From positions 1 to 34,649 of the forward strand of contig CAYTKL010000002.1 in assembly GCA_964438305.1 (NCBI GenBank): DNA of 34,649 nt. The letters run 5' to 3'. The position numbers and the translations under genes are program-made. This document shows positions 15,882-30,191 of this stretch, piece after piece (within the stretch, counting starts at the first letter, position 1; each line of letters begins with the position of its first letter). This DNA is from an uncultured Dehalococcoidales bacterium (GTDB lineage: Bacteria > Chloroflexota > Dehalococcoidia > E44-bin15). The notes beneath the pieces were generated by a model. That model had not been told where the DNA came from. It saw only the letters and a list, made by a program, of their open reading frames with translations, and did no database searches.

Positions 15882-16031
15882 CGTAACGCCCCGGTGGCGC
15901 TGCTATCGCCGCCACGCTGGCTGTGAGCTACAGCGGTTGCAGGCTGACGAGCCACGCCGGTAGCCCGCGGTGTGGGGTCGTTTCGATTGCGGTTGATAGT
16001 AGGACGTCGCGCGATTGCGTCAGTGATGAGA

Positions 16032-16061
16032 AACACCTGGCTATTGCAGTAGCCAGGTGTT
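16032..16061. terminator. 12-bp perfect stem-loop at the left border of the low-GC insertion
   Basis: AACACCTGGCTA-ttgcag-TAGCCAGGTGTT. No clear U-tract on the plus strand, so its role as a terminator is uncertain. Confidence 0.3.
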
Positions 16062-16147
16062 CATGATAGCATCAGGAGAGCTAGAGTAGGCGTCTCACAC
16101 TGTGCCGGTCCTCGAAGCTAGTGCCAGTAGCTTTGAGAACTTTCCGA

Positions 16148-16172
16148 CATAGACAGTATAGCATTGTCTATG
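16148..16172. promoter_or_regulatory. inverted repeat, candidate autoregulatory operator of the DUF433/DUF5615 pair
   Basis: CATAGACA-N9-TGTCTATG, ending 16 nt upstream of the ATG at 16189 and just before the GGGAGG RBS. Confidence 0.4.
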
Positions 16173-16188
16173 AAGGGAGGTCAAGATT

Positions 16189-16878
16189 ATGACTGCCGAA
16201 TCTGCCACTCAACCTCGCAAGATTCAACCACTCGGCTTCTACACTCCGAGTGAAGCCGCTCGTATCTGTAGGGTTCCCCAATGGACAATGAATTCCTGGC
16301 GAAGACAGGGAGTCATTGTCCCATCTGTCCGGTGGGTAGATGAAGAGCATAAACCGCATATCGGCTACACATTCGAGACTGCAGTGTTCTTGCGCCTCGT
16401 GAGGATGCTACGCGAGAAACGTGTCACGCTTCTTGATGCCGTGACTGCGATGCAACGATTGCGCCAACGCTTTGGGCCGCCAAGCACCGATTGGGCGGGT
16501 ATTAGCATCTTCGTCTATGGCGTAGGCGATGTCTACGTGCATCGAGAGCAGGATGAATGGGGGACGACTTCACTTACTAGACAGCACCAAAGGGTCGCGG
16601 AACTGCTGTTTGGAGAGGAGTTCCAGCGCCTGAAAGAAAGGGCGGACGCTCTTCTAGTACCCAATGAGTTTCTAGATAACGTAGAGATTGACCCCTCAAT
16701 ACAGAACGGCCTTCCAATCATATTGGGTACTGCCGTGCTGACGAGCGTCGTTCACAAGCTGAGGATTCGAGGATACGAATACGGCGAGATTCAGAACATG
16801 TACCCATTCATAAGCGATGCAAGAATCGCGGGTGCTGAGGCATACGAGTCATTCCTAGACAAGGCCGCTTTGAGCTAG
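16189..16878 (+). CDS. DUF433 domain protein (antitoxin-like) with long N-terminal HTH-like extension
   Basis: The C-terminal VEIDPSIQNGLPIILGTAVLTSVVHKLRIRGYEYGEIQNMYPFISDARIAGAEAY matches the DUF433 pattern. The N-terminal YTPSEAARICRVPQWTMNSWRRQGVIVP looks like a MerR-type HTH. Local GC is visibly lower. Confidence 0.75.
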   Translation: MTAESATQPRKIQPLGFYTPSEAARICRVPQWTMNSWRRQGVIVPSVRWVDEEHKPHIGYTFETAVFLRLVRMLREKRVTLLDAVTAMQRLRQRFGPPSTDWAGISIFVYGVGDVYVHREQDEWGTTSLTRQHQRVAELLFGEEFQRLKERADALLVPNEFLDNVEIDPSIQNGLPIILGTAVLTSVVHKLRIRGYEYGEIQNMYPFISDARIAGAEAYESFLDKAALS

Positions 16879-16892
16879 AGGAAACCCCGCGC

Positions 16893-17444
16893 GTGTACAC
16901 AGATGCTAGTGCAAACGCGCGCGTGATAGACCTCCTATTGCAGCTGGGATGGGATGTCGAGACTGCACAGCAAGCAGGGTTAACAGGCAAGATAGACGAT
17001 GTGGTCTGGATTCGATACGCGAAGAAGCACGGACGTATAGCCATCACCTTTGATGAATTGAAAGGACAGCAAGGTGAGAAGGTTTCACGTGAACTACGAC
17101 AGCGGGGCGGCAATGTTCTGCGGGTACAAGGTGGGCCAGAGCAGAACAAATACCGCGCAGTCGGCAAACTACTGTTCCATTACCCAGAGTGGTATCCTTT
17201 CCTGTCTGCAAGCGACGGTGTCTCGGTGATCTCTGACGTCAGGAGACAAAGCTGCAGGAGCTATACCCCAGAGCAGTATCATCAGCACTGCCATCCAGTC
17301 GATGCGGAGCAATTCACCGAATACCTCAAGAGTCGTCGTCAACGAAAACCCTATCGCCCGAGAAAACGCAAGACGAAGCCGCCTGACGCTGCCCAGGAAC
17401 CCCTCCCCCAGCCTCCAAGTGTCCCACCAACCACAAGCGAATAG
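16893..17444 (+). CDS. DUF5615 (PIN-like / Mut7-C-like) putative toxin with basic Pro-rich C-terminal tail
   Basis: ...DASANARVIDLLLQLGWDVETAQQAGLTGKIDDVVWIRYAKKHGRIAITFDEL fits the DUF5615 pattern usually paired with DUF433. GTG start lies 14 nt after the partner gene. Tail is KSRRQRKPYRPRKRKTKPP.... Confidence 0.65.
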   Translation: MYTDASANARVIDLLLQLGWDVETAQQAGLTGKIDDVVWIRYAKKHGRIAITFDELKGQQGEKVSRELRQRGGNVLRVQGGPEQNKYRAVGKLLFHYPEWYPFLSASDGVSVISDVRRQSCRSYTPEQYHQHCHPVDAEQFTEYLKSRRQRKPYRPRKRKTKPPDAAQEPLPQPPSVPPTTSE

Positions 17445-17519: not shown

Positions 17520-19184
17520 ATGTTTGACCAGAAGGCATTGCAGCGGATAGATGAGCGCGGCGCGAAGTGGGCCGCCAGGGCCTCTCAGGCGGAGGAGCGG
17601 CGCGACCGCTTCGCTACCAGTTCCGGAATACCGGTCAACAGGCTCTATACGCCGGCGGATATAGCTGGAATGGACTACCTGGCCGACGTCGCCTTTCCTG
17701 GCGAGTACCCCTTCCTTCGCGGCATTCACCCCACCGGACACCGAGGACGGCTGTGGACCATGCGCATGTTCGCCGGTTTCGGCACCGCCGAGGAGACCAA
17801 TCAGCGCTTCAAGTACCTTCTGGAGCACGGCGAGACCGGACTGAGCGTGGCCTTCGACATGCCCACCCTGATGGGCTACGACACCGATGCCCCCGAGGCG
17901 AGCGGCGAGTTCGGCAAGTGTGGGGTGGCGGTCTCTTCACTGGCCGACATGGAGATTCTGTTCGATGGCATCCCCATCGACCAGGTGACGACATCGATGA
18001 CCATCAACAGCCCGGCGGCGGTGGTCTGGGCGATGTACGTCGTCGCCGCCGAGAAGCGCGGCATACCCATGGAGCGCCTCGGAGGGACCATCCAGAACGA
18101 CATCCTCAAGGAGTATATCGCTCAGAACGAGTATCTGTTTCCGCCACGGCCCTCGATGCGCCTCATTGTCGATACCTTCGAGTTCGGCACCAGGCATCTG
18201 CCGCGGTGGAATACCATCAGCATCAGCGGCTACCACATCCGTGAGGCGGGGGCCACCGCTGCCCAGGAGCTGGCTTTCACCCTCGCCGACGGCCTGACCT
18301 ACGTGGAATGGGGCGTGGAGCGCGGTCTGAAGATAGACGATTTCGCTCCCCGGCTCAGCTTCTTCTTCAACGCGCATAACGATTTCTTCGAAGAGGTCGC
18401 CAAGTTCCGTGCGGCGCGGCGCATCTGGGCGCGGGAGATAAAGGCCCGCTACCACCCGCAGGACGAGCGTTCTCTGTGGCTGCGCTTTCACACCCAGACG
18501 GCCGGCTGCACCCTGACGGCACAGCAGCCGGAGGTCAACAGCGTCCGCGTTGCCTTTCAGGCGCTGGCGGCGGTGTTGGGCGGTACGCAGTCGCTCCACA
18601 CCAATGCCCTGGACGAGGCCTGGGCTCTGCCGTCCGACAAGGCGGTGCTCATCGCCCTGAGGACGCAGCAGATTATTGCCCACGAGACCGGCGCGGCGAG
18701 CACGGTGGACCCCCTTGGGGGCAGCTTCGTGGTGGAGGCCCTGACCAATGAGCTCGAAGAGGCGTGCCACGACTACTTTCGCAAGATTGACTCCCTGGGC
18801 GGCGTTATCCCCGCCATAGAACGGGGCTTCTTCCAGCGCGAAATCGCCGAGGCCGCCTATCACTACCAGCATGAGATCGAGGAGCGGGAGCGCATTGTGG
18901 TCGGGGTGAACGACTACATCGTCGACGAGCCCCTCACCATCCCTATCCTGGAGCTGGACGCCGAGGGCGAGAGAAGGCATATCGAGCGGCTCAACCGCGT
19001 TCGCCGTGAGCGAGACGACCGCGAAGTGACGCGGCGGCTCACGGAGCTTCGCCGGGCCGCCGCGGGAACGGACAACCTCATGCCGCCCATCATCGAGGCG
19101 GTGCGGGCCTATGCCACGCTGGGCGAGATATGCGACGTGTTCCGCGAGGTGTTCGGCGTCTACAGCCCGGCGGAGGTCCTGTAG
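17520..19184 (+). CDS. acyl-CoA (methylmalonyl/isobutyryl-type) mutase large catalytic subunit, no B12-binding domain
   Basis: 554 aa. [45 protein letters not shown] and [10 protein letters not shown] are hallmark MCM TIM-barrel motifs. The protein ends before any B12-binding module. Confidence 0.9.
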
Positions 19185-19203: not shown

Positions 19204-19233
19204 TTGACAGGTGGCGCAGTTTCCTGTTACAAT
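19204..19233 (+). promoter_or_regulatory. sigma70-type promoter (TTGACA-N18-TGtTACAAT)
   Basis: Consensus -35 at 19204-19209 and an extended -10 TGTTACAAT ending at 19233, about 40 nt upstream of the first aptamer. Confidence 0.6.
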
Positions 19234-19276
19234 GTAAGCTCAATCGCACACTTGGTTTTGAGGCAAAACTGAATAC

Positions 19277-19401
19277 GGCTCCCTCTCCGAGTTGTCCGGC
19301 CTAAACCCCGCCGTGGTGGGGCAGGGGCGGCAACCGGCAGGCGAAAGCCTCGAGGGTGCGGCGAGAAATGGCCACACCTCCCGTGTTTGGAAAGGAGAGA
19401 C
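19277..19401 (+). promoter_or_regulatory. Moco/Tuco (molybdenum/tungsten cofactor) riboswitch-like aptamer, copy 1
   Basis: 5' CCCTCTCCGAG can pair with 3' GGAAAGGAGAG as P1. Internal GGC-GAAA-GCC tetraloop hairpin, CCTCCC and GGAAAGGAG elements match my recollection of the Moco RNA motif. A WtpA gene lies in the downstream operon. Confidence 0.7.
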
Positions 19402-19423
19402 ACTTGTCGTCAACAGGTCAATC

Positions 19424-19461
19424 AATAGCACCCTACCTTGTGATGGGGTGCTATTCTTTTT
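19424..19461 (+). terminator. intrinsic terminator, expression platform of aptamer copy 1
   Basis: AATAGCACCC-loop-GGGTGCTATT followed by CTTTTT. Confidence 0.7.
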
Positions 19462-19528
19462 GCCTCAAGTCTGCCTCAGGACGTCAGGGTCCGGGGGCCG
19501 CGTAGCGGAAGAAAGGACAGAACACAAA

Positions 19529-19649
19529 GGCTCTCCGAGCTGTCCGGCCTAAACCCCGTTCATTCGGGGCAGGGCCGGCAGCCGGCAGGCGAAAGCCTCG
19601 AGGGTGCGGCGAGAAATCGCCACGCCTCCCGTGTTTGGAAAGGAGAGAC
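19529..19649 (+). promoter_or_regulatory. Moco/Tuco riboswitch-like aptamer, copy 2 (SD-sequestering type)
   Basis: Near-identical repeat of copy 1. Its helices are CTCTCC/GGAGAG (P1), CCGGCC/GGCCGG enclosing CCCCG/CGGGG, AGGC-GAAA-GCCT, and GCGGCGA-gaaa-TCGCC. The P1 3' strand is an AGGAG SD located 5 nt before ATG 19651. Confidence 0.7.
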
Positions 19650-19815
19650 GATGGGTGACATCGATTCGGCCGGCAGAGCCTTGCTCATCGAGGCGCTGTT
19701 GCCTCGCTCACGACCGGCCACGGTTGACGCCTTCTATCATGTGGTGCGCCCCCCCTGAGCCTGCCGCTTCCCTAAATGAGAGCGCATGCAAACACCTGTA
19801 ACAAAGGAGCGCAAG

Positions 19816-21261
19816 ATGAAAAGATGGGATCTGGTTGCAGTGGTGTGCGTTCTCGCCCTGCTGGTCGCGGTCATTCCCGGCACCATGCCGGTGGCTGCCG
19901 ACCCGGGCGGGACGACATCGCTCACCATCACAAGATACGACTTCGACGGCACCACGGTGCTGGGTACGGTGACAATGAACGTCACCGAGTTGCAGACTCT
20001 CCCGGTCCAGGGCGATGGCTCAACGCACTACTACCTGCAGGGGCCGACCATGGACCCGCTGAACCTGTGGGACCCCGACGAGACGCTGAACCTGAAGGAC
20101 AAGGGTGCCCTCAAAGGCACCGACGTCGCCGACCTGTGCGACGAGGTGGGCATGTACCCCACCGACGAGGTCGAGGTACTGGCTGAGGACGACTTCGGCC
20201 AGACCTTCCAGTACGTCGACGTGTACGACCCCGAGCCGGAGCAGGGCAAGATGGTGGTGTGCTGGTGGAAGGACGGGGACCTGGTGCCCACCTACGACGA
20301 TGGCATGCAGCTCGTTTTCTTCGCCGAGACCACCAACGGCTCGGGCCAGTACGTGTTCGGCAACTGGGACATGAACCAGACGCTGCCCGAGGACAACCAT
20401 CACTACTGGGGCGACTACCCTTCGTCAAACGGACTGTCGGTGAAGTACATCGACCGCATCAATGTGTACAGCCATGAGTGGGAGTTGACGCTGGACGGCG
20501 ACAGCACCTACGTCATGGACCAGCCGGAGTTCGAGGAAGGGGTAGGATGCCACGAGGTGACATGGGATGACGGCGGCGACATCTGGAGCGGCATACCGCT
20601 GTGGCGGCTGGTCGGCTATGTCGACGATGACAACGTGCACGACTTCAACGACGACCTGGCGGCGGAGGGGTATGAGGTCAAGGTCACAGCCGTGGACGAC
20701 TACAGCAAGACCTTCGCCAGCGCGGACGTGGCACGCAACGACGACATGATCATCGCCAACACCCTCAACGGCGAGCCGCTCGCGGCGAACAAGTTCCCGC
20801 TGCGACTGGTCGGCCCGGACCTGACCGGGGGACAGAAGGTAGGGCAGATTGCCACCATAGAGCTGGTTGGGCTGCCCGAGGGGGACGCCAGCGCGTCGCT
20901 CGGGGCCACCGCCAACGTGGTGCTTCCGACTGTGGGAATCGGCCTGGACCGCGATTCCATAGACTACGGGGACGTTGGCCCGGGTGAAAGCTCCGATGAA
21001 GAGACGGTGAACGTCACCAACGTCGGCACTACCGACGTGGACGTGACCCTTCAGGTCATCGGGGGCAACGGAGTGGCCCAGGACTTCTACGAGCTCTCGC
21101 TTCACCTTGACGGCCTTCTCTTCGACCCTCTGGCGGTCATCGCACACATTCTGGTGGGCAATACCGAAGATGTGGTCACGCAATTGCACGTGCCGTCCAA
21201 CTGGAGCCATGGCGGCGCTCAGGAGGCGGAGTTCATCTTCTGGGCTGAAGCATCACCCTAG
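19816..21261 (+). CDS. secreted three-domain protein: novel SUOX-fold-like N-domain, Oxidored_molyb (YedY/sulfite-oxidase-fold)-like domain, C-terminal Ig-like beta-sandwich
   Basis: AAGGAG lies 7 nt before ATG 19816. Signal peptide MKRWDLVAVVCVLALLVAVIPGTMPVAA. Domain 2 has GCHEVTW...WSGIPLWRLVGYV and KFPLRLVGPDLTGGQKVGQIATIELV. The N-domain is paralogous to the 21915..22772 product. Confidence 0.8.
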   Translation: MKRWDLVAVVCVLALLVAVIPGTMPVAADPGGTTSLTITRYDFDGTTVLGTVTMNVTELQTLPVQGDGSTHYYLQGPTMDPLNLWDPDETLNLKDKGALKGTDVADLCDEVGMYPTDEVEVLAEDDFGQTFQYVDVYDPEPEQGKMVVCWWKDGDLVPTYDDGMQLVFFAETTNGSGQYVFGNWDMNQTLPEDNHHYWGDYPSSNGLSVKYIDRINVYSHEWELTLDGDSTYVMDQPEFEEGVGCHEVTWDDGGDIWSGIPLWRLVGYVDDDNVHDFNDDLAAEGYEVKVTAVDDYSKTFASADVARNDDMIIANTLNGEPLAANKFPLRLVGPDLTGGQKVGQIATIELVGLPEGDASASLGATANVVLPTVGIGLDRDSIDYGDVGPGESSDEETVNVTNVGTTDVDVTLQVIGGNGVAQDFYELSLHLDGLLFDPLAVIAHILVGNTEDVVTQLHVPSNWSHGGAQEAEFIFWAEASP

Positions 21262-21273
21262 TTGGGATTGTGA

Positions 21274-21304
21274 CATGGGCGGAGGCCAGCGGCCTCCGCC
21301 CATG
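21274..21304 (+). other. intercistronic 14-bp GC-rich stem-loop
   Basis: CATGGGCGGAGGCC-agc-GGCCTCCGCCCATG, 12 nt after the stop at 21261. No U-tract. Confidence 0.6.
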
Positions 21305-21361
21305 CGCGGAGCGTGCACCTCGTGGCAACGCTCCGCGCTGTCAAACTGATTGGAGGACTGG

Positions 21362-21952
21362 ATGAGAATCGCAAGGTGGACCGCTCCATTGCTGCTGGCC
21401 GTTCTTCTGGCGCTTCTGCTCTCCAGTACAGCAGACGCTGGCGCCTTCGCCATCGGGCCACCCTCACTGGAGGTCACCGTGCCTTCGGACGGTGAGGCTG
21501 ACGTTTCGGTCTACATCACCTCCGACTTCGATGGCGAGCTGCTCGTCGATACCGAGGGCGTTCCATTCGACGTGGAACCGAAGGTGATAGAGATCGAGGA
21601 TTCATACGTCCAGCAACACGTGGACCTGACCTTCGTCGGGAAGCCCTCAGCCTCCGCCGGCACATATGACGGCAAGGTGACATTCCTCGGCTACATGGGG
21701 GGCAACGTCGCTGGCGGAGTCAAGCTGGAGCTGACGGCGACCGTGACCGGGACGGGGGGCGTTGCCAGTATCGACGAGACTGGCGGCTGGCTGGAGGAGA
21801 ACTACCTCATAGTGGTGCTGGGGGGTCTGGCCGTGGTGGCGCTGGTATTCGGCATCCTGATTGGGAGACGGGGGAGACCCAGGCCGCAGCCGGCACTGGC
21901 AAGGAAGAGAAGACGTGAGTACCCGCAAAGCAAGAGCCGCACTACTCGCTAG
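21362..21952 (+). CDS. signal-peptide, Ig-like beta-sandwich protein with C-terminal TM anchor and basic tail
   Basis: GGAGGA RBS then ATG 21362. MRIARWTAPLLLAVLLALLLSSTADA signal, beta-rich middle, LIVVLGGLAVVALVFGILIG TM segment, then RRGRPRP... tail. No family recognised. Confidence 0.7.
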   Translation: MRIARWTAPLLLAVLLALLLSSTADAGAFAIGPPSLEVTVPSDGEADVSVYITSDFDGELLVDTEGVPFDVEPKVIEIEDSYVQQHVDLTFVGKPSASAGTYDGKVTFLGYMGGNVAGGVKLELTATVTGTGGVASIDETGGWLEENYLIVVLGGLAVVALVFGILIGRRGRPRPQPALARKRRREYPQSKSRTTR

Positions 21953-22772
21953 CATCGTCCTGCTCACGCTCGTTCTGTGGACCGCGCCGGCACTGGCGGC
22001 CGAGCCGACCACATCCGTGCACGTGGTGAAGTACGCCGCGGATGGGACTACCGTTGTGGCCGAGGAGTCGGTGGACTACGAGTGGATGGAGGCCAACCTG
22101 CCGGTGCAGGGCGACGGGGTGACCCACTACTTCCATCAGGGGCCGGTGTTTGAGGGGGACAAGTGGGACCCCGACGAGACGGCGAACCTCAAGGACAAGG
22201 GCGCCCTCATGGGCACGGATATCAGGGACCTGTGTGACCTGGTGGGCGGCATGGCGGATGACGACACGGTCGTCATCTGCGCCGCTGATGGCTACTGTGT
22301 CGACTTCGGCTACAGCACGGTGTACGAGCCTGCGGAGAGGCAGGGGCCGATTGTCCTCTGCTGGTACAACGGCGAAGGTGCCGGTGGTGCGGAGGCACAG
22401 GGTGAAGGGTATGCACCCAGCTACTACGACGCAATGCAACTGGTCTTCATGGCTGAGACCACTAACGAGGACGGCAAGTACGTATTCGGCAACTGGGATA
22501 TGCACCAGTGCCTGCCGGAGGAGGCGCAGCACTTCTACGGCGAGCTCTATCCCTCCACCAACGGACTGTCGGTGAAGTGGATCAGCGAGATACTGGTACA
22601 TTCCAGCGAGACAGCCGTTGCTTCACTGACGGACCCGGCGGACAGTGGCGATACGGACGGACGCTCGACAAACACGTCAAGCCCGATGTGGTGGATCATA
22701 GCCGCATCGGCGCTGGGCGTTGCGGCGCTGTTTCTTGTCGGAGTCGTCATGGGGAAGCTGGTGAGAAGGTGA
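21915..22772 (+). CDS. exported, C-terminally membrane-anchored single-domain paralog of the N-domain of the 19816..21261 protein
   Basis: LPVQGDGVTHYFHQGP...WDPDETANLKDKGALMGTDIRDLCDLVG...MQLVFMAETTNEDGKYVFGNWDM...STNGLSVKWISEILV aligns closely with the first gene. Has a signal peptide and a C-terminal TM (WWIIAASALGVAALFLVGVVMG). GTG 21915 start is tentative and overlaps the upstream gene by 38 nt. Confidence 0.75.
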   Translation: MSTRKARAALLASIVLLTLVLWTAPALAAEPTTSVHVVKYAADGTTVVAEESVDYEWMEANLPVQGDGVTHYFHQGPVFEGDKWDPDETANLKDKGALMGTDIRDLCDLVGGMADDDTVVICAADGYCVDFGYSTVYEPAERQGPIVLCWYNGEGAGGAEAQGEGYAPSYYDAMQLVFMAETTNEDGKYVFGNWDMHQCLPEEAQHFYGELYPSTNGLSVKWISEILVHSSETAVASLTDPADSGDTDGRSTNTSSPMWWIIAASALGVAALFLVGVVMGKLVRR

Positions 22773-23359
22773 TGGCGGGGGCAGACCGAGGCAACCGACG
22801 GCGCGCGCTGGCTCTCATCCTGGCTGTCGTGTGTGGCGTCCTGGCCGTGCTCGCCTGCACCGCCTGCGGAGCGGGAAACACCGCTCACCAGGCCGTCGAG
22901 TGGGACGTCACCCTGGTCGGCGAGGGGGACACGGTCCTCAGCTATGACGACGTGACAGCGATGACGGCCTGTGAGGGCTATGGCGGGTTCTTCACCACGG
23001 TCGGCGTCGTCAACGGCCCCTACCATGCCACGGGCGTTCCATTGCAGGACCTGTGCGAGCTGGCTGGCGGGATTGACCCTTCGCAGGTGGTCCGCGTGTC
23101 GGCTCCCGACGGCTACTCCATGGTATTCAGCTACGCGCAGCTCAACGGCGATTTCGTGACCTACGAGCCGTCCACGATGAATGAAGTCCCGCACGGCGAA
23201 CTCGAGGTAATACTGATGTACCAGCAGGACGGCAAGTATCTGTCGGAGGATTATGGCAGTCCGCTTCGGGTCGCCATAGTCGGCTCGGAGCCACTGCTCA
23301 CCGAGGGGCACTACTGGGTCAAATGGGTGAACAAGGTCGAGGTGTTGAGCTTCGATTGA
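22772..23359 (+). CDS. exported (possibly Tat/lipoprotein) single Oxidored_molyb (YedY/SUOX-fold)-like domain protein
   Basis: TGATG overlap with the upstream stop. N-terminus is MAGADRGNRRRALALILAVVCGVLAVLACTAC (RRR plus a Cys lipobox-like site). Also ACEGYGG...ATGVPLQDLCELAGG and GSPLRVAIVGSEPLLTEGHYWVKWVNKVEV. The track start 22508 is rejected. Confidence 0.75.
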   Translation: MAGADRGNRRRALALILAVVCGVLAVLACTACGAGNTAHQAVEWDVTLVGEGDTVLSYDDVTAMTACEGYGGFFTTVGVVNGPYHATGVPLQDLCELAGGIDPSQVVRVSAPDGYSMVFSYAQLNGDFVTYEPSTMNEVPHGELEVILMYQQDGKYLSEDYGSPLRVAIVGSEPLLTEGHYWVKWVNKVEVLSFD

Positions 23360-23375
23360 GCGCAGGGTCTGGTCA

Positions 23376-24452
23376 ATGAGACGGTTCATGAAGGCGCCAT
23401 ACTGGGTGGCATTGGCGCTCCTGCTGGCTCTGATAATAGTCCCCAGCGTGTACTTCAGCCTCGACAACGACAGGACACTGGTCAGGGTCCTCAGCGCCGG
23501 CAGCCTCATCGTGCCCTTCACCGAGATGGAGGCTGAGTTCGAGAAACTGCATCCCGACGTCGACGTGTTCATCGACGGCCACGGCAGCATCCAGGTGATC
23601 AGGCACGTGACCGAGCTGTACCAGGAGGCGGATGTGATGGCGGTCGCCGATTACTCGCTCATTCCGATGTTGATGTACGAGTGCTACATGCCCGATAGCG
23701 GCGAGAGCTATGCCGACTGGTGTGCGCAGTTCGCCACGAACACCCTGGGGATAGCCTACTCTTCGAGCAGCAGGTATGCCGACGAGATCACCGCCGACAA
23801 CTGGTATGAAATCCTCGCCCGGCCCGACGTGACCTTCGGCCTGTCCGACGCACGCTTCGATGCCTGCGGCTACAGGGCGCTGATGGTGTGCCAGCTCGCC
23901 GAGCTGCACTACAGTGACCCCGACATATTCGACACGTTGCTTGGTGAGGCCTTCACCTGGCCCCTGACCGTGGTCGAGGAAGGTGACGTCTACACCATCC
24001 TGGTGCCGGAGATACTGGAGCCGGCGAGCAAGAAGGTCGCTCTCAGGGGTTCCAGCGTCTGGCTGCTGTTCCTGCTGGAGTCCGGCGATGTGGACTACGC
24101 CTTCCAGTACGAGAGCGTGGCGCGGCAGCACGGTCTCGAGTTCCTGCAACTGCCGGTCGAGATTGACCTGAGCTCCTTCGACTACAGCCACGTGTACGAA
24201 CGGGTGAAGGTCAAGCTCGCGTTTCAGCGCTTTCGGTCGGTGGAGCCGGAGTTCGTCGGTCAACCCATCATCTACGGGCTGAGCATACCCAACAACGCGC
24301 CGCATCCGGAACTGGGGGCCGAGTTCATCGAGTTCCTTCTCTCGCCGGCGGGACAGCAGATACTCAGCGAGCAATGGCAGCCATCCATAGACCCGGCTGA
24401 GGTGGACAGGGCTGAGGCTGTGCCTGCCAGCCTTGCGCCGTTGTTCCAGTGA
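23376..24452 (+). CDS. wtpA: tungstate/molybdate ABC-transporter substrate-binding protein, WtpA-like
   Basis: VLSAGSLIVPFTEMEAEFEKLHPDVDV...GSIQVIRHVTELYQEADVMAVADYSLIP...RYADEITADNWYEILARPDVTFGLSD...DACGYRAL...LPVEIDLSS matches the archaeal-type WtpA family as I recall it. N-terminal hydrophobic anchor. Confidence 0.8.
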   Translation: MRRFMKAPYWVALALLLALIIVPSVYFSLDNDRTLVRVLSAGSLIVPFTEMEAEFEKLHPDVDVFIDGHGSIQVIRHVTELYQEADVMAVADYSLIPMLMYECYMPDSGESYADWCAQFATNTLGIAYSSSSRYADEITADNWYEILARPDVTFGLSDARFDACGYRALMVCQLAELHYSDPDIFDTLLGEAFTWPLTVVEEGDVYTILVPEILEPASKKVALRGSSVWLLFLLESGDVDYAFQYESVARQHGLEFLQLPVEIDLSSFDYSHVYERVKVKLAFQRFRSVEPEFVGQPIIYGLSIPNNAPHPELGAEFIEFLLSPAGQQILSEQWQPSIDPAEVDRAEAVPASLAPLFQ

Positions 24453-24467: not shown

Positions 24468-24497
24468 TTGAAATGCCGTGCCCGAGTATGCTAAGAT
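24468..24497 (+). promoter_or_regulatory. candidate sigma70 promoter (TTGAAA-N18-TGcTAAGAT)
   Basis: Same -35 / extended -10 architecture as the promoters at 19204, 29587 and 32459(-). Ends 21 nt before ATG 24519. Confidence 0.45.
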
Positions 24498-24518: not shown

Positions 24519-27500
24519 ATGAAGTACTCCCTCGGCTTAGATATTGGCTCGGTCAACGCGAAACTGGCCCTCATCGACCAAGACTGTAGCACAGTTAAGC
24601 TTGACACCGAGAAGATTACCTCGAGTCCCAATGCTGCGGTCGCTTCGCTTATTTCGAGGCTGGGCGCGGACGTATCGTTGGAGGACATCGCCACGGCGGG
24701 CGTGTGCGGCTCCGGCAAGGGCGTCATACCCAAGGACCTGAAGTGGGCGGTATACAGCAGCTCGCTCGCGATCGCCTCGGGACTTCTTCGTTCTTACCCG
24801 GACGCCAAGACCATCATCCAGATTGGCGGCCAGACGTCGCTGGTCATAGAGCTGGAGGACGGGCTCAAGAAGCCGTGGAAGGTGGCGTCCAACCCTCTCT
24901 GTGCCGCAGGCACCGGCAGGTTCATCGAGCAGCAGGCGTACCGCATCGGCATCAGCATCGACGAGTTCGCCCAGTTGGCCCTGCAATGCGAGGAGAGCCC
25001 GCCCCGAATAGCGGCCAGGTGCAGCGTCTTCGCCAAGACCGACCTCATCCACCTCCAGCAGAAAGGCGTGCCGATGACGGCCATGCTCTATGCCCTGTGC
25101 GAAAGCATCGCCCGTCTGGTCGTCTCGTTGAAGAAGGGGCCTTTCCATGAGCCGGTCTACTGTGTCGGTGGTGTTGCCGCCAACAGCGCTGTCTTGAAGG
25201 CGCTGACCGAGGCGGTGTCCGCGAGAAACGGCTACAAGGTCAACATAACTGTCCCCGAGGACTACGGCCATATAGAAGCACTGGGTGCGGCCCTGCTGGC
25301 GGCGGACAGCGGGAAGACGTCCACCGTCGTCCCTATTGAGGAACCCGATATAAAGCAGCGCTACTTCGAGACGTCGAGCCTGGACAGGGTGACCCAGCAC
25401 GACGGCTGGGAGCCGCCGACAATCGACGCGCCGTTTACCGGCTACCTCGGGATCGACATCGGCTCCACCAGCACCAAGGCGGTCATACTGGACGAGACAG
25501 GCACGAGGGTGCTGGCCAAGAACTACCTTATGACCGCGGGCCGGCCGGTTGATGCCATCAAGCAGGTCTTCCGCAATCTGCTCCCCCTGGTCGGGGACAA
25601 AGCCACGATAGCCGGCGTGGGCATCACCGGCTCGGGCAGGTACCTGGTGGGTAGCTTCGTCGGGGCCGACCTGATAAAGAATGAGATCACAGCGCAGACC
25701 CGGGCCGCGGCGGAGATAGACCCTGACGCCGACATAATCGAGATTGGCGGCCAGGACTCCAAGCTCGTCATCAAGCGAAACGGTGTTGTCGTCGACTATC
25801 AGATGAACAAGGCATGCGCTGCCGGTACGGGCAGCTTCATCGATGAGCTGGCTGAGCAGCTAGGCGTGCATGTGCAGGACGGCGAGTTCGCCAAACTGGC
25901 GTTCGATGCGCCCCATACCATCGACCTGGGGTCCAGGTGCGCCGCCTTCATGGGACAGGCGGTCGCGTCGGCCCAGCAGGAAGGCGTGCCCATTGAGGTG
26001 ATAACCGCCAGCCTGTCCAACTCGATTGCGGCCAACTACCTGTCGAAGGTCCTGGGCAACAGGAAGCTGGGGGACACGGTGATGCTGACGGGGGCGGTCT
26101 TCTACAACGACGCCGTCGTCTCCGCGTTTCAGCGGGCCCTGGAAGGCAAGGATACCATCGTGCCGCAGCACAAAGAGGTGAGCGGCGCAATAGGGGCGGC
26201 GCTCCTGGCGAAGGAGCAGATGGGTGGAGAGGGCTCCAAGTTCAAGGGCTTCCAGAACGTCATCGACAGCAATCCCAAGATAAGCACCTTCACCTGCAAG
26301 ATATGCGATAACAACTGCACCATAAGCCGCATGGAGATACCGGGCGAGAAGCCTACCTTCTACGGCAGCAGGTGCGACCTCTTCGACAGCACCATCAGCC
26401 GGGAGAAGATGGAGACCGCTTTCGACGAGCGGGAAAGGTTGCTGTTCAAGGACTACACGGAACGGGCGGGCAGCGGGCCTACGGTCGGGATTCCCCGCGC
26501 GCTCATAGTGTACGACTATGCCCCGATGCTTATCGCCTTTCTAAACGCGCTGGGGGTCAACGTCGTCCTCTCCAGCAAGACCACCAAGGCTATCATAGAG
26601 CGAGCCGTTGAGCTGAGCTATAACGACAGTTGTTTCCCCGTCAAGCTGCTGCACGGTCATGCCGAAAGCCTCAAGGATGTTGACTATATTCTCTACCCCA
26701 GCGCCATCCGCATGGGGCTGAAGGAGGGGGACGAGAACCAGAAGTACACCTGCCCCCTGGTGCAGGCATCCCCGTATATCATTCGTCAGGCTCTGGACTT
26801 CGGCAAGGAGCTGCTCATACCGACCATAGACTTCAGCCGCGGGGACAAGCTGACCACAGACAGCCTTGCCGATTGCGCCGTGCAGATGGGGTTCAGCCGC
26901 GCGAAGGGCAAGAAGGCTGCCCGTGCCGGCATTGAGGCGCAGCGACAGTTCGAGGCGGCTGAGGTGGAGGCGGGGCAGAAGCTCCTGCAGCGGCTTCACG
27001 ACAACAACGAGTTGGGCGTTGTGCTCCTGGCCCGGGCGTATATGTCGCAGGATGCCGGGGCCAACCTGGGCATAGCGGAGAAGCTCGCTCAGCTCGGCGT
27101 GGTGCCGGTGCCAATGACTTTCCTGCCGCTGAAGTCGGTGAATGTCTACGAGTACTCGGACCGGCCCTACTGGTACTACGAAGGCAAACACATCGCCGCC
27201 AGCGCTCTCACCGAGCGGGACCCGTCGCTCTACGGACTGATACTGACCAACTTCGGATGCGGCCCCAACTCCTTCATAATCAATATCGTTGAGGACATCA
27301 TGGGCGGTCAGCCTCTGGGTCAACTGGAGATCGACGAGCACGCCGCTGAGGCAGGCATCGTGACCCGCCTCGAGGCCTTCGTCGATACGATAAAGGCGTT
27401 CGCTCGCTCCGGGGCGCAGGCCAAGGGGTGGGACGAGAACGCCTACCGCTCGGCCCCGGTAAGCTTGAGTACGGGCAAGACCATCCTGTTGCCACGGATG

Positions 27501-28670
27501 GCGCCTGGTGCGGAGGCTATGGCGGCGGCGATGGAGGCCTTTGGAGTGAAAGCGGCGGTGCTCCCGCCCTCCACTGAGGAGTCCCTTCTCTACAGCAACA
27601 AGGTGACACGGGGCACGGAGTGCCTGCCCTACCGCGTCACCCTCGGCGATTTCCTCAGGTACTTCCATGAGAACGGGGCCGACACCCTGCAGCAGGTCGA
27701 GGGGTTCATGCCCAGCGCCTTCGGGCCCTGCCGCTTCGGCAAGTATGTGGTGGAGGAGACCAGGATTCTCCGGGAAATGGGCTACGACCTTTCCATCCGC
27801 ACCACCGTGTCCAACAACGCCTATCGTGACATGGGCCTCGGGCGTGCCTTCGAGCGCCTGGCATGGCGCGGCCTCGTCTCCTTCGATTACCTGCAGCGCC
27901 TTCTGTGGCGTACTCGCCCCTACGAGAAGTCCCCCGGCACGGCGGACGCGTTGTTCGACGACTACACCGCCCGCGTTGCCGACCGCATCAGGAAACGGGA
28001 GGACTTCGGCGACGTGCTGCGCGACGCCGTTTCCGCCTTCGGCTCAGCCATCGACCCGGAGAAGCCGAAGCGACCGCTGGTGGCCATCAACGGCGAGATC
28101 TTCCTGCGCTCCAACGAGTTCAGCAACAGCTACTTGGTGAGGGAATGTGAGAAGGCGGGTCTCGAGGTTATCGTCTCGTCCGTCGGGGAATGGGTGAAAT
28201 ACATCCAGCACCGCAATATCGAGGACGGCGTGTGGGACAGGGATGTGAAGAAGGTCCTGTCCGGCGTCATCAGGAGGCGCATACTGAGGACCGATGAGGA
28301 AATGGTGGCCGCCGCCTTCGAGGGCCTGCCTCATATGGGAGAGCCTTCCACTAAGGAGCTGCTGTCCTGCTCCGCCGACCACATCTCTTCAGACTGCGGT
28401 AGCGAGGCCGTCCTCAGCATAGGGTCCGGCGTTGAATGGCTGGAGAATCCCCGCTTCGCCGGGGTCATATCGGTGATGCCGCACGGCTGCATGCCCGGGG
28501 GTATTGTCGCCGCCATGTCAGAGAAGCTCGCCGCCACCCACGGCAAGCCGTGGATCAACCTCACCTATGATGGCTTCATCGAGACGACCAACCTGGAGAG
28601 AATCAACAACTTCGCGGAGATAATACGCTTCTGCAGCGCCGGCGGTGAACTCGCCCTCGCCGCTGTCTAG
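24519..28670 (+). CDS. fused double BcrAD/BadFG-type ATPase (CoA-substrate-specific enzyme activase) plus 2-hydroxyacyl-CoA-dehydratase-like (DUF2229) domains
   Basis: 1383 aa. Two ASKHA ATPase modules (LGLDIGSVNAK..., LGIDIGSTSTK...), each with cluster-Cys motifs (NPLCAAGTGRFIE/ARCSVFA and NKACAAGTGSFID/SRCAAFM). Then a CKICDNNC Cys motif and two dehydratase-like halves (GIPRALIVYDYAP..., CFPVKLLHGH...). Confidence 0.85.
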   Translation: MKYSLGLDIGSVNAKLALIDQDCSTVKLDTEKITSSPNAAVASLISRLGADVSLEDIATAGVCGSGKGVIPKDLKWAVYSSSLAIASGLLRSYPDAKTIIQIGGQTSLVIELEDGLKKPWKVASNPLCAAGTGRFIEQQAYRIGISIDEFAQLALQCEESPPRIAARCSVFAKTDLIHLQQKGVPMTAMLYALCESIARLVVSLKKGPFHEPVYCVGGVAANSAVLKALTEAVSARNGYKVNITVPEDYGHIEALGAALLAADSGKTSTVVPIEEPDIKQRYFETSSLDRVTQHDGWEPPTIDAPFTGYLGIDIGSTSTKAVILDETGTRVLAKNYLMTAGRPVDAIKQVFRNLLPLVGDKATIAGVGITGSGRYLVGSFVGADLIKNEITAQTRAAAEIDPDADIIEIGGQDSKLVIKRNGVVVDYQMNKACAAGTGSFIDELAEQLGVHVQDGEFAKLAFDAPHTIDLGSRCAAFMGQAVASAQQEGVPIEVITASLSNSIAANYLSKVLGNRKLGDTVMLTGAVFYNDAVVSAFQRALEGKDTIVPQHKEVSGAIGAALLAKEQMGGEGSKFKGFQNVIDSNPKISTFTCKICDNNCTISRMEIPGEKPTFYGSRCDLFDSTISREKMETAFDERERLLFKDYTERAGSGPTVGIPRALIVYDYAPMLIAFLNALGVNVVLSSKTTKAIIERAVELSYNDSCFPVKLLHGHAESLKDVDYILYPSAIRMGLKEGDENQKYTCPLVQASPYIIRQALDFGKELLIPTIDFSRGDKLTTDSLADCAVQMGFSRAKGKKAARAGIEAQRQFEAAEVEAGQKLLQRLHDNNELGVVLLARAYMSQDAGANLGIAEKLAQLGVVPVPMTFLPLKSVNVYEYSDRPYWYYEGKHIAASALTERDPSLYGLILTNFGCGPNSFIINIVEDIMGGQPLGQLEIDEHAAEAGIVTRLEAFVDTIKAFARSGAQAKGWDENAYRSAPVSLSTGKTILLPRMAPGAEAMAAAMEAFGVKAAVLPPSTEESLLYSNKVTRGTECLPYRVTLGDFLRYFHENGADTLQQVEGFMPSAFGPCRFGKYVVEETRILREMGYDLSIRTTVSNNAYRDMGLGRAFERLAWRGLVSFDYLQRLLWRTRPYEKSPGTADALFDDYTARVADRIRKREDFGDVLRDAVSAFGSAIDPEKPKRPLVAINGEIFLRSNEFSNSYLVRECEKAGLEVIVSSVGEWVKYIQHRNIEDGVWDRDVKKVLSGVIRRRILRTDEEMVAAAFEGLPHMGEPSTKELLSCSADHISSDCGSEAVLSIGSGVEWLENPRFAGVISVMPHGCMPGGIVAAMSEKLAATHGKPWINLTYDGFIETTNLERINNFAEIIRFCSAGGELALAAV

Positions 28671-28673
28671 GCT

Positions 28674-29420
28674 CTAGTACTCCCGCGACACTCCCTGGGC
28701 CGGGTGGCCCACCACGCTCATGTAGACCACGCTTTCCTCGACCCCATCCACGCCCAGTATCCGGTTCACTTCATCATCGAACAGGGCCCCGACCTGGCAA
28801 CTGCCCAGCCCTATGCTGACCGCGGAGAGCGCCAGGCCGTGTCCCACGTGGCCGGCGTCGAGGTACACGTAGCGGTACGCCCGCTGGCTGTACTTCCATT
28901 TGGAGCGGTTGAAGATGGCCGTCCACACGAACACCACCGCGGCGTCGGCGCATATCCGCTGCCCCAGCGCCGCCCGGGTGATATCCTGCCCCAGGTCCCC
29001 CGTGCGCAGCTCCTCCAGGGCGTGCTCTCGAATGGCGTAGTGATAGGCGCCGGGCGGCACCCCCTCCACGTCATGGACAATCACGTAGGTCTCCACCGGA
29101 TAGAGGGCGCCCGCCGACGGGACGGTGCGGAACTCATGCCCGCGCTCCATGCTCCGGATGCCGTTTGACGCCCACAGCAGGTACGACAACTGCTCCAGGC
29201 TGATGGGCTTTCCGGCGAAAGAGCGAACGCTCCTGCGCCGCCGTATGGCCTCGTCCAGACTCATGTGTGAGCCCTCCGGAGGGGTGGGCAGCTCTATCCT
29301 GTTGCCGCCGGGGTACTCCTTGTACGGTTCGGGAAGCGCCATCCGCTCGCTTCCCGCCACCGCCCTGTCGCGATAGTACTTGGTGTCCTGCTGAAATGCG
29401 TCGCCCACTCCGTTGGCCAT
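28674..29420 (-). CDS. SagB/ThcOx-family nitroreductase-fold dehydrogenase
   Basis: RRRRSVRSFAGKPISLEQLSYLLWASNG...VPSAGALYPVETYV...AYRYVYLDAGHVGHGLALSA is the SagB-type pattern. GGAGGAGG RBS precedes ATG 29420; the track start 29498 is rejected. Confidence 0.8.
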   Translation of the reverse strand: MANGVGDAFQQDTKYYRDRAVAGSERMALPEPYKEYPGGNRIELPTPPEGSHMSLDEAIRRRRSVRSFAGKPISLEQLSYLLWASNGIRSMERGHEFRTVPSAGALYPVETYVIVHDVEGVPPGAYHYAIREHALEELRTGDLGQDITRAALGQRICADAAVVFVWTAIFNRSKWKYSQRAYRYVYLDAGHVGHGLALSAVSIGLGSCQVGALFDDEVNRILGVDGVEESVVYMSVVGHPAQGVSREY

Positions 29421-29518
29421 GTGCAACCTCCTCCGACCGCTGGCCAATTGTACCCCAATCGGGCACGGGAGTGATACCGAGTGCCGTTTGGCGCGCACGC
29501 ACGGCTGCCACCGCTTCG

Positions 29519-29543
29519 GTAGGGGCGTTCAATTGAACGCCCC
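29519..29543. repeat. perfect 22-bp palindrome GGGGCGTTCAATTGAACGCCCC (plus GTA flank), left copy
   Basis: Identical palindrome at 31271-31292. The flanking GTA/TAC extends the pair into a 25-bp inverted repeat. Confidence 0.9.
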
Positions 29544-29586
29544 CGCAAACGCTGGTGCTGCGGTGCCGCAGCAATGTGTATGGCCG

Positions 29587-29615
29587 TTGACAGGGTCGGC
29601 CATTCCTGCTACAAT
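29587..29615 (+). promoter_or_regulatory. sigma70 promoter (TTGACA-N17-TGcTACAAT) of the arsR-family gene
   Basis: Consensus -35 and extended -10, 44 nt upstream of ATG 29659. Confidence 0.65.
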
Positions 29616-29625
29616 GATGATAGAT

Positions 29626-29639
29626 TTAGCGATTACGCA
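29626..29639 (+). promoter_or_regulatory. 14-nt motif TTAGCGATTACGCA, copy 1 (candidate operator at about +5 of the promoter)
   Basis: Exact second copy at 30048-30061, upstream of the permease. Confidence 0.4.
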
Positions 29640-29658
29640 ACTATTAAATGATGGTGCC

Positions 29659-30018
29659 ATGGCAAGCGAACAGGACAGGTGTGAGGTACACGTGATACAC
29701 CCGGAGAAGGTGGCCGAGGCAAGGCGACGCCTGCTCGACGACAGGGCCTATGCCAGCCTGGCGGAGACCTTCGGTGCGCTGGCGGACTCCAACCGCGCCA
29801 AGATCGTCTACAGCCTTCTGGAGCAGGAGCTTTGCGTGTGCGATATCGCCGCTGTTGTCGGCATATCCGAGTCGGCGGTCTCCCAGCACCTGCGAATCCT
29901 GCGCAACCTGAGACTGGTGAAGCAGCGCAAGGAAGGCCGCATGATGTACTACTCGCTCGACGACGACCACATCCACAAGCTCCTCGACGTGTGCCTGGAG
30001 CACGTCGGCCACGACTAG
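29659..30018 (+). CDS. ArsR/SmtB-family metal-sensing transcriptional repressor
   Basis: ELCVCDIAAVVGISESAVSQHLRILR wHTH with the alpha3 C-V-C site. C-terminal DDH-x10-H-x2-H is an alpha5-like site. ATG 29659 lies downstream of the mapped promoter, so the track start 29413 is rejected. Confidence 0.88.
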   Translation: MASEQDRCEVHVIHPEKVAEARRRLLDDRAYASLAETFGALADSNRAKIVYSLLEQELCVCDIAAVVGISESAVSQHLRILRNLRLVKQRKEGRMMYYSLDDDHIHKLLDVCLEHVGHD

Positions 30019-30047
30019 GGGGCCTCTTTTCTTGTTGCCACAATACC

Positions 30048-30061
30048 TTAGCGATTACGCA
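30048..30061 (+). promoter_or_regulatory. 14-nt motif TTAGCGATTACGCA, copy 2
   Basis: Exact repeat of 29626-29639, immediately followed by AGGAG. Confidence 0.4.
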
Positions 30062-30191
30062 GGAGATGAATCATGTTCACGACAGGCGGTGAGATGAGTC
30101 ACACCGTCGTGCGCGGGGGATTGCCGCTCGAGCAGGCCAGAGCGCGCCGTGGCCCCTTCACCTTCCGCACCCGTGAGCAGGCACCGGGACA

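Follow-up and report, generated by a model that had tools for sequence, protein, structure and literature searches.

A riboswitch-linked cluster of exported SUOX-fold proteins adjoining wtpA, a candidate accessory module for molybdenum and tungsten acquisition in anaerobic Bacteria and Archaea

Introduction

We know of no accessory factors described for the ATP-binding cassette (ABC) importers ModABC, TupABC and WtpABC. Tungsten (W) and molybdenum (Mo) are essential for the formate dehydrogenases, formylmethanofuran dehydrogenases and aldehyde oxidoreductases of methanogens, methane and alkane oxidizers, syntrophs and organohalide respirers, and little is understood of how such organisms obtain these metals in sulfidic habitats that scavenge metal. 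Here we describe a cluster of five genes, designated g1, g2, g3, g4 and wtpA in 5' to 3' order, in a 34,649-nucleotide (nt) stretch of DNA (the window; GenBank assembly GCA_964438305.1, contig CAYTKL010000002.1, forward strand) from an uncultured Dehalococcoidales bacterium of the Chloroflexota. The cluster probably functions in Mo/W acquisition or homeostasis in the broad sense. We lean, by a modest degree, toward the narrower proposal that it is a cell-envelope accessory module of WtpABC that captures Mo/W species. A conserved surface module tied both to WtpA and to a cofactor-sensing riboswitch is a concrete and testable candidate for such an accessory.

PruR provides a precedent for part of this system. 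It is a secreted, Cys-less protein of the sulfite oxidase (SUOX) fold that binds a non-molybdenum pterin and acts via an adjacently encoded membrane protein (PMC11194511). Like g4, PruR of Agrobacterium, Vibrio and Klebsiella (PDB 7kos, 7kom, 7kp2 and 7rkb) is a small, minimal, Cys-less SUOX protein exported by the general secretory (Sec) route. Its gene adjoins that of its membrane partner on the 5' side, just as g4 lies directly 5' of wtpA, and its stacking Tyr (D-G-Y) is kept in g4-type domains. The differences are as follows. The PW motif of PruR is absent from g4, and of its pterin triad N-x-Y ... W only the Tyr and the C-terminal Trp are conserved. The PruR partner is a DcpA-type GGDEF-EAL enzyme, whereas the neighbor of g4 encodes the ABC binding protein WtpA. 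Unlike PruR, the present modules are repeated, joined to anchors and placed under a riboswitch of the molybdenum cofactor (Moco) class, and they occur in strict anaerobes including Archaea rather than in Proteobacteria. When the PDB was searched by a profile of aligned g4 sequences, no PruR was returned even at E 10, only weak C-terminal sulfite oxidase matches, and membership in the PruR family by sequence was therefore rejected.

Three further kinds of system invite comparison. The SUOX enzymes (sulfite oxidase, SorA/SorT, SoxC and YedY/MsrP; PF00174) have the fold and the C-terminal signature motifs in common with the proteins described here. The WtpABC/ModABC class III importers (Pyrococcus furiosus PF0080, Archaeoglobus fulgidus AF0094 and Methanosarcina acetivorans MA0280) share WtpA, and genes for a permease and a TOBE-domain ATPase adjoin wtpA in relatives of the window cluster. 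In contrast, the characterized importers have no described upstream surface accessories, and the window differs from them in that wtpBC does not adjoin. Finally, the Isd NEAT heme relay, streptococcal Pht with AdcAII, and ZinT with ZnuA employ repeated wall- or membrane-anchored modules, encoded beside the gene of a binding protein and induced by scarcity. The present modules have an unrelated, SUOX-derived fold, would target an oxyanion-forming metal and are linked to a riboswitch instead of Fur, Zur or AdcR; the analogy with these relays would be one of mechanism only.

A trace of the same genes may already be on record. Regulski et al. (2008; PMC2408646) reported that in Syntrophomonas wolfei, as an unexplained exception, RNAs of the Moco riboswitch class that lack the P3 stem precede genes annotated as 'putative sulphite oxidase', and described a triple-riboswitch operon that combines Mo/W transport genes with others whose function is unknown. 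The S. wolfei genes were assumed there to encode enzymes, and neither a function nor a survey of synteny or an analysis of structure was given (PMC2408646). Metagenome-assembled genomes (MAGs) of Syntrophomonas carry members of the g4 family in the same arrangement as in the window, and the riboswitch-linked S. wolfei genes may belong to this family. No description of the gene set was found in the literature searched, including PMC13390414, in line with an earlier note on this DNA that did not recognize it as a characterized system. Cys-less SUOX binding modules and capture proteins accessory to ABC importers are each known as kinds; this cluster is probably undescribed.

Results and Discussion

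Gene content and export of the products

The five open reading frames (ORFs) are closely spaced on the forward strand, 3' of two RF01055 aptamers. This packing had been described in the earlier note and is borne out by the ORF coordinates and aptamer scores, as are the junctions it listed: g2 and g3 share 38 nt, g3 and g4 share TGATG, and 16 nt separate g4 from wtpA. The first gene, g1 (19816-21261), encodes a secreted protein of 481 aa with more than 250 homologues. Its signal peptide is followed by domA (residues ~31-220, nt 19906-20475), a PF00174-type SUOX-like domB (residues ~221-352, nt 20476-20871) and a C-terminal beta-sandwich, domC (nt 20872-21258). The g2 product (21362-21952) has a signal peptide in front of a beta-rich domain and ends in a transmembrane (TM) anchor with a basic tail; that of g3 (21915-22772) runs from a signal peptide through a SUOX-related domain of domA type to a C-terminal TM anchor. 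The 195-aa g4 product (22772-23359) is a minimal SUOX-like domain with an N-terminal helix or lipid as anchor. The last gene, wtpA (23376-24452), encodes the substrate-binding protein of a tungstate/molybdate ABC transporter, anchored at its N-terminus.

All five products begin with a hydrophobic segment that serves as signal or anchor, and g2 and g3 end in a TM helix followed by a basic tail; the leading segments and the TM helices had been noticed at the outset. We read all five as Sec-type signals or anchors. The WtpA assignment is based on profile scores that mark the protein as bona fide: 328.4 bits for TIGR03730 (cutoff 242.75), 343.5 for NF003196 (slightly under its cutoff of 355), a Pfam match to PF13531, and E ~2e-79 to the solved archaeal WtpA/ModA structures (PDB 3k6u and 2onk).

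Conservation of the cluster with wtpA

We surveyed one genome per species (GTDB) by g4-profile scan and mapped neighboring genes by tblastn; related loci compared with the window are given L-numbers. The synteny counts come from tblastn matches in MAG contigs, many of them short, and the pattern-based genome scan finds only relatives that keep three seed motifs. Seventy loci were recovered, and the confident matches were all from anaerobic lineages. Archaeal carriers were ANME-1 and ANME-2 (anaerobic methanotrophic archaea), Methanosarcinales, Argoarchaeum, Methanothrix, Methanomethylicus, Bathyarchaeia and Thermoplasmata; bacterial carriers were Dehalococcoidia, Syntrophomonadaceae, Peptococcaceae and Moorellaceae. 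The closest relatives were uncultured Chloroflexota, and the window's promoter type and its riboswitches point to a bacterium.

In 52 of the 57 loci with enough sequence, wtpA lay directly 3' of g4 on the same strand, and a g3/domA-type gene lay directly 5' of g4 in 46 of 52. At the g4/wtpA junction of relatives, gene calls often showed either an overlap of 4 nt or a spacing of 1-20 nt, which suggests translational coupling. The recurring order is a large SUOX-module surface protein, small anchored proteins, a g3-type and a g4-type gene, wtpA, and usually wtpB and a TOBE-domain wtpC. It was seen in Chloroflexota MAGs, an ANME-2c Methanosarcinales MAG, Moorellaceae AZ2 and an unassigned metagenome contig. 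A Bathyarchaeota contig carries g1-like, phosphoesterase, g3-like and g4-like genes with no wtpA adjoining. The large protein of Moorellaceae AZ2 bears SLH domains, and a dockerin domain (PF00404) is present in several g1 homologues.

The description of WtpA as an orphan holds for this window but not for relatives, where wtpB (with wtpC) comes next after wtpA in 27 of 42 loci. A wtpA without adjoining wtpBC is nonetheless a common variant, found likewise in the nearest GTDB relative (L016). The order g3-g4-wtpA is kept across Archaea and two bacterial phyla despite protein identities of 45-60%. The cluster is evolutionarily locked to wtpA, and this synteny is the strongest evidence for a role in metal uptake. 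Of the two roles entertained in the earlier note, surface capture of W/Mo feeding WtpA is strongly favored by the adjacency of g4 and wtpA together with riboswitches that recur in two bacterial phyla.

SUOX-like domains that lack several hallmarks of molybdoenzymes

Four SUOX-like domains had been suspected in the cluster, and each is upheld by one or more lines of evidence. PF00174 matched g1 residues 256-351 (31.8 bits) and g4 residues 87-193 (36.1 bits; Pfam cutoff 24), in both cases over profile positions ~70-162 of 169 only. A Pfam scan gave no match for g1 domA or g3. The g3 domain is 48% identical to domA (E 1e-63), and hhalign related the domA profile to that of g4 (probability 96.5%, E 8.6e-10) and domB to g4 over the whole length of domB (probability 79.5%, E 1.5e-5). 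Thus, PF00174 matches, the paralogy of domA and g3, and profile alignment show that all four domains are SUOX-fold relatives. Consistent with this, Foldseek comparison of the AlphaFold model of g4 (pLDDT 88.8) with the PDB returned PruR first (7kom; E 4.9e-6, TM-score 0.73 normalized to target), followed by sulfite oxidases, SorA, SoxC and YedY. The g1 model (pLDDT 75.6) matched sulfite oxidases at E ~2e-7 and PruR with a root-mean-square deviation of ~3.2 Å. Matches of the models to SUOX enzymes had E values of 1e-5 to 1e-7 with a probability of 1.00. The C-terminal SUOX signature motifs G-[IV]-P-L, D-G-Y, P-L-R and V-K-W are kept.

Members of the g4 family share 46-80% identity across Bacteria and Archaea (40 aligned sequences). 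Among 1.84 billion cluster representatives, the g4 profile matched only 849 at E <= 1e-3, of which 125 had E <= 1e-30; the best 150 library matches all had E <= 6e-29 and were often multi-repeat. Matches this few, strong and often multi-repeat make the g4 family appear distinct from mainstream SUOX proteins. Proteins of the retrieved loci contain 1-8 SUOX-like modules in shuffled architectures, and nine matched stretches were found in one library protein of 1556 aa (P0241). Shuffling and repetition of this sort are typical of binding modules. Homologues are currently named 'hypothetical protein', 'molybdopterin-dependent oxidoreductase' or 'YedY catalytic subunit' in databases, and hundreds of proteins bearing the latter two names are probably mislabeled. 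Module repetition reaches its extreme in some archaeal relatives, whose giant proteins carry eight or nine SUOX-like modules in tandem; one from a Thermoplasmata MAG (L083, 4343-7897) has four g4-type modules followed by four of domB type.

The fold also accommodates a different explanation, namely that these are genuine extracytoplasmic Mo/W-cofactor oxidoreductases, a new SUOX subfamily co-expressed with the importer that supplies it. PF00174 scores above the gathering threshold for g1 domB and g4 and the confirmed SUOX fold agree with this explanation, as does an alignment of ~300 columns between domB plus the C-terminal beta-domain and sulfite oxidases, in which a Moco domain is likewise followed by a dimerization domain. 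The conserved (C)H pair of domB points the same way, and Moco riboswitches are known 5' of cofactor-using enzymes (PMC2408646). Residues and partners expected of an enzyme, however, are missing. The g4 hairpin G71-G-F-F-T-T-V-G78 is invariant in 40 sequences; Cys98 of plant sulfite oxidase maps there, as placed by sequence and profile alignments rather than structural superposition, and the hairpin contains no Cys. The motif Cys highlighted in the earlier note, Cys67 of the window g4, is not conserved in the family and is not the conserved Mo ligand. By alignment, the corresponding hairpin region of domA has no Cys either. The domB hairpin is shortened, as in PruR, with a frequent C245-H246 pair at its base; H246 is conserved in 86% of sequences and often preceded by Cys, and the pair is not equivalent to the Mo ligand by alignment. 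Partial alignments, read with sulfite oxidase numbering in which we take the R-N-H segment to be N-terminal and the active-site Tyr region C-terminal, indicate that g4 is without both segments.

Exported SUOX enzymes use the twin-arginine translocation (Tat) pathway because they fold around their cofactor in the cytoplasm. A strict twin-arginine motif was present in none of 205 homologues with complete N-termini (0/106 in the g1 family, 0/99 in the g4 family), which agrees with the Sec-like export proposed in the earlier note; a loose RR motif was found in 7 and 3 of these proteins, respectively. The RRR and lipobox-like Cys pointed out in g4 are indeed there in the window. RRR, like Cys67, is not conserved in the family, and a lipobox-like Cys occurs in 46 of 99 g4 homologues, the remainder having an uncleaved anchor. 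A Tat or lipoprotein reading of g4 was rejected on these grounds, RR not being conserved and the Cys being found in about half of the family only. No heme, Fe-S or YedZ-type partner was encoded by the five genes of the window or by the called genes of the examined relatives' clusters. Tandem repeats of up to nine modules are atypical for catalytic domains, and an OFF switch would silence an enzyme just when its cofactor is available. Collectively, the lack of a Mo-ligating Cys in g4, the truncated PruR-like fold with its limited PF00174 match, Sec rather than Tat export, the absence of a redox partner and the repetition of modules make classical enzymes unlikely, and the new family of extracytoplasmic Mo/W enzymes that had been the other role considered is disfavored accordingly.

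The rank of PruR, at or near the top of the structural matches to g4 and g1, suggests another possibility, pterin sensors of PruR type that gate or modulate WtpA/WtpBC and thus serve regulation instead of metal capture. PruR is secreted, Cys-less and pterin-binding and contacts a membrane partner encoded directly downstream (PMC11194511), and g4 is likewise found 5' of a putative partner. The D-G-Y Tyr is conserved in 96-100% and the C-terminal Trp in 92% of g4-type domains. Weighed against this are the failure of the PDB profile search to find PruR, the absence of the PW motif and of a DcpA-type partner, and carriers that are strict anaerobes and not Proteobacteria. Furthermore, a sensor would have no need of up to nine repeats or of a giant secreted, wall-anchored protein. 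We consider a sensory function improbable and retain the view of the modules as parts of an uptake accessory.

Riboswitches and leader ORF

A promoter-like site of the sigma-70 type (19204-19233, forward strand; TTGACA-18-TACAAT with TG before the -10 element, 11/12 consensus matches) sits 40 nt 5' of aptamer 1. Aptamer 1 (19273-19413; 74.3 bits, E 2.4e-16) and aptamer 2 (19521-19661; 83.1 bits, E 6.2e-19) are both forward-strand, P3-containing members of RF01055 that span the full covariance model (positions 1-135; gathering score 36), the P3 hairpin being AGGC-GAAA-GCCU. An intrinsic-terminator-like hairpin with a T-run follows aptamer 1 on the same strand (19424-19462; a 12-bp stem in the hairpin at 19424-19455, then CTTTTTGCC). 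It dominates the predicted fold of that region and is the putative expression platform of aptamer 1. The region 3' of aptamer 2 folded no better than shuffled sequence (z = 0.0), and no terminator is therefore claimed there. Aptamers of the Moco class are usually OFF switches.

A leader ORF of 35 codons (19651-19758, forward strand) begins at the end of aptamer 2, with its Shine-Dalgarno sequence within the 3' strand of the aptamer and a peptide ending in R-P-P-stop. Its start, length, stop position and C-terminal Y-H-x-x-R-P-P-stop are kept in the window, L001 (~9836-9943) and L016 (~6676-6783), among which DNA identity in this region is only ~64%. In other relatives, the first structural gene begins at the position of the leader ORF start. 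The R-P-P-stop ending resembles that of stalling leader peptides such as TnaC, and the ORF may encode a riboswitch-controlled leader peptide.

In all six Chloroflexota loci where RF01055 was found 5' of the cluster (the window, L001, L012, L016, L051 and L065), it occurs in tandem; four Bacillota loci (L057, L060, L061 and L066) also have RF01055 in this position. The window and L016, and probably L001 as judged from its 141-nt aptamers, carry the P3-containing form. Aptamers of the other relatives compared (L009, L012, L057, L060, L065 and L066) are P3-less and, at 119-123 nt, ~20 nt shorter. The P3-lacking form has been tied to the tungsten cofactor (Tuco) by Regulski et al. (PMC2408646), and the P3-containing form is linked in the literature to Moco. 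With both forms in front of orthologous clusters, the alternatives are a cluster that serves both metals and a P3 rule that is less than strict. Moco/Tuco riboswitches of both P3 types have been recruited to the clusters independently.

Some Dehalococcoidia have an extra, single RF01055 element between wtpA and wtpB (L005, 13746-13865; L012, 18033-18152, which is the same as L028, 11727-11846). Its 3' end overlaps the start of wtpB in these loci, so permease and ATPase would be regulated apart from the surface module.

Within the window cluster, the 100-nt gap between g1 and g2 contains a perfect GC-rich hairpin without a T-run (21277-21301; GGGCGGAGGCC-AGC-GGCCTCCGCCC), a possible element of mRNA processing or stability by which the levels of g1 and of the downstream genes would be made to differ. 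A second, terminator-like hairpin at 22708-22730 lies within the TM-coding part of g3 and was judged to be due to chance.

g2 and the metallophosphoesterase

A Pfam scan gave no match for g2. Iterative search among the related loci revealed homology to the C-terminal beta-domain and TM anchor of purple acid phosphatase (PAP)-like metallophosphoesterases in L015, L048 and L082. The metallophosphoesterase consists of Pur_ac_phosph_N and Metallophos domains and holds the same slot in sister clusters as g2 does here (L015, 204-2231; L048, 5281-7326; L082, 3404-5173; L014, 6331-7104). Its GD / GDxx / GNHE / HHP / HxH motifs are present and the purple-phosphatase Tyr is absent. Joined to these in the same protein are a domC-type domain, a g2-type domain and a TM anchor. 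In one Moorellaceae version, nothing of the phosphatase is left but a stub of its N-domain. We interpret window g2 as a remnant of such a metallophosphoesterase-anchor protein from which the catalytic domain has been lost, a reading suggested by the sequence homology. The initial view of g2 as an Ig-like anchor protein needs amending: its TM segments support the anchor, whereas homology to the phosphoesterase anchor module speaks against a simple Ig-like identity. No relationship between g2 and the C-terminal beta-domain of g1 was detected by hhalign.

Tungstate and molybdate are known inhibitors of phosphatases of the purple-acid type. The phosphoesterase could be an oxyanion binder or a processor of phosphorylated cofactor, and fits either role. 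The second of these belongs to a salvage scheme in which the modules bind extracellular Moco or its tungsten counterpart, the metallophosphoesterase (lost here, with g2 left) processes it, and the metal enters via WtpA. It is the SUOX fold that naturally binds Moco in its mononucleotide form, and a Metallophos/PAP-like gene fused to a g2-type anchor domain is found in 25 of 68 clusters. Control by a cofactor-sensing RNA and a layered architecture like that of Isd heme relays would also suit salvage. The scheme is nevertheless inferential throughout. Moco in free form is highly labile and is probably seldom met in the environment, the window cluster manages without a phosphoesterase, and plain oxyanion capture accounts equally well for phosphatases that bind tungstate and molybdate as inhibitors. 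In addition, the cleft for the ligand looks truncated, like that of PruR, which is thought unable to accommodate Moco (PMC11194511, PMC13259868). Salvage of intact cofactor, then, has little probability in our estimation.

Proposed role of the cluster

Our proposal of an envelope accessory to WtpABC can be put as a sequence of predicted steps, in which binding by the modules, the relay and the nature of the ligand are conjectural. When Moco/Tuco is scarce, both switches would open and the operon would be expressed, aptamer 1 acting via its intrinsic terminator and aptamer 2 by occluding the Shine-Dalgarno sequence of the leader ORF when closed. The products would be exported unfolded via Sec and placed at successive depths of the envelope. 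The g1 protein, with two SUOX-derived modules, would be secreted (relatives are predicted to hold it by SLH or dockerin domains), g2 and g3 would be held by their C-terminal helices, and g4 would lie at the membrane beside anchored WtpA. Having lost the Mo-ligating Cys (clearly in g4 and domA, perhaps in domB) and other catalytic segments, the SUOX-derived modules are predicted to act as ligand-binding domains, as PruR does. They would take scarce Mo/W species at the surface and hand them inward from g1 to g3, g4 and WtpA, by analogy with Isd/NEAT for heme and Pht/ZinT for zinc. Candidate ligands are the oxyanion, thiometalates, which are prevalent in sulfidic habitats, and a pterin-bound form. 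WtpA would then dock on WtpBC encoded elsewhere in this organism.

Several observations weigh against this proposal. No permease or ATPase gene (wtpB or wtpC) was found in the 34.6-kb window, where Pfam was run on 20 further ORFs. In a few archaeal loci (5 of 57 loci overall), a g4-type gene occurs without adjoining wtpA. PF00174 scores for g1 domB and g4 are above cutoff, and the conserved H246 with its frequent Cys makes a metal or cofactor site in domB possible. The conserved residues of the modules are chiefly Gly, aromatic and acidic, unlike a classical oxyanion site. Finally, OFF switching by each aptamer is presumed from the usual behavior of the class, and this logic, like co-transcription from g1 to wtpA, is read from sequence alone.

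A more specific version of the accessory proposal is an Isd-like relay of catalytically dead SUOX-fold modules, with an optional metallophosphoesterase, that mobilizes W/Mo in forms WtpA cannot bind alone. Such forms would be thiometalates, metal bound to minerals or organic matter, and cofactor of the molybdopterin type from other cells. The relay would then represent a new class of envelope machinery, used by strict anaerobes among both Archaea and Bacteria. We advance this version tentatively and regard it as possible but rather doubtful. If true, it would account for the W/Mo supply of methanogens, ANME, syntrophs and Dehalococcoidia in sulfidic sediments. It would also extend the PruR precedent, in which a SUOX fold is re-used as a non-catalytic binding module, to Archaea and to multi-repeat surface proteins. 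If the S. wolfei genes are orthologous, the 2008 puzzle of Moco/Tuco riboswitches 5' of 'sulfite oxidase' genes would be resolved.

Generic envelope, surface-layer or adhesion proteins with a merely historical linkage to wtpA and no metal role are very unlikely: Ig-like, SLH and dockerin modules and variable repeats are typical of surface-layer proteins and no metal-binding motif was recognized in the cluster, but a g3-g4-wtpA order this widely kept, start and stop codons that overlap at junctions, and independently recruited riboswitches are not explained by chance or hitch-hiking.

Neighboring genes

Downstream of wtpA, the weak promoter-like element that had been ascribed to the next gene was found at 24468-24497 (9/12 matches). 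That gene, at 24519-28670, is an ORF of 1383 aa, and a long ORF at the same position in L001 suggests conservation there. Judged from its sequence, the product appears to contain two BcrAD/HgdC-type ATPase (activator) repeats and a 2-hydroxyacyl-CoA-dehydratase-like region. On the other side of the cluster, 5' of a methylmalonyl-CoA mutase gene (17520-19184), GC content dips to 0.52 from ~0.62 over positions 16001-17444, a segment with genes for a MerR-family regulator and a DUF5615 protein that may be a small acquired insert. An ArsR-family regulator (HTH_5) followed by an ArsP_1-type permease (29413-31139) forms a second metal or metalloid homeostasis pair nearby.

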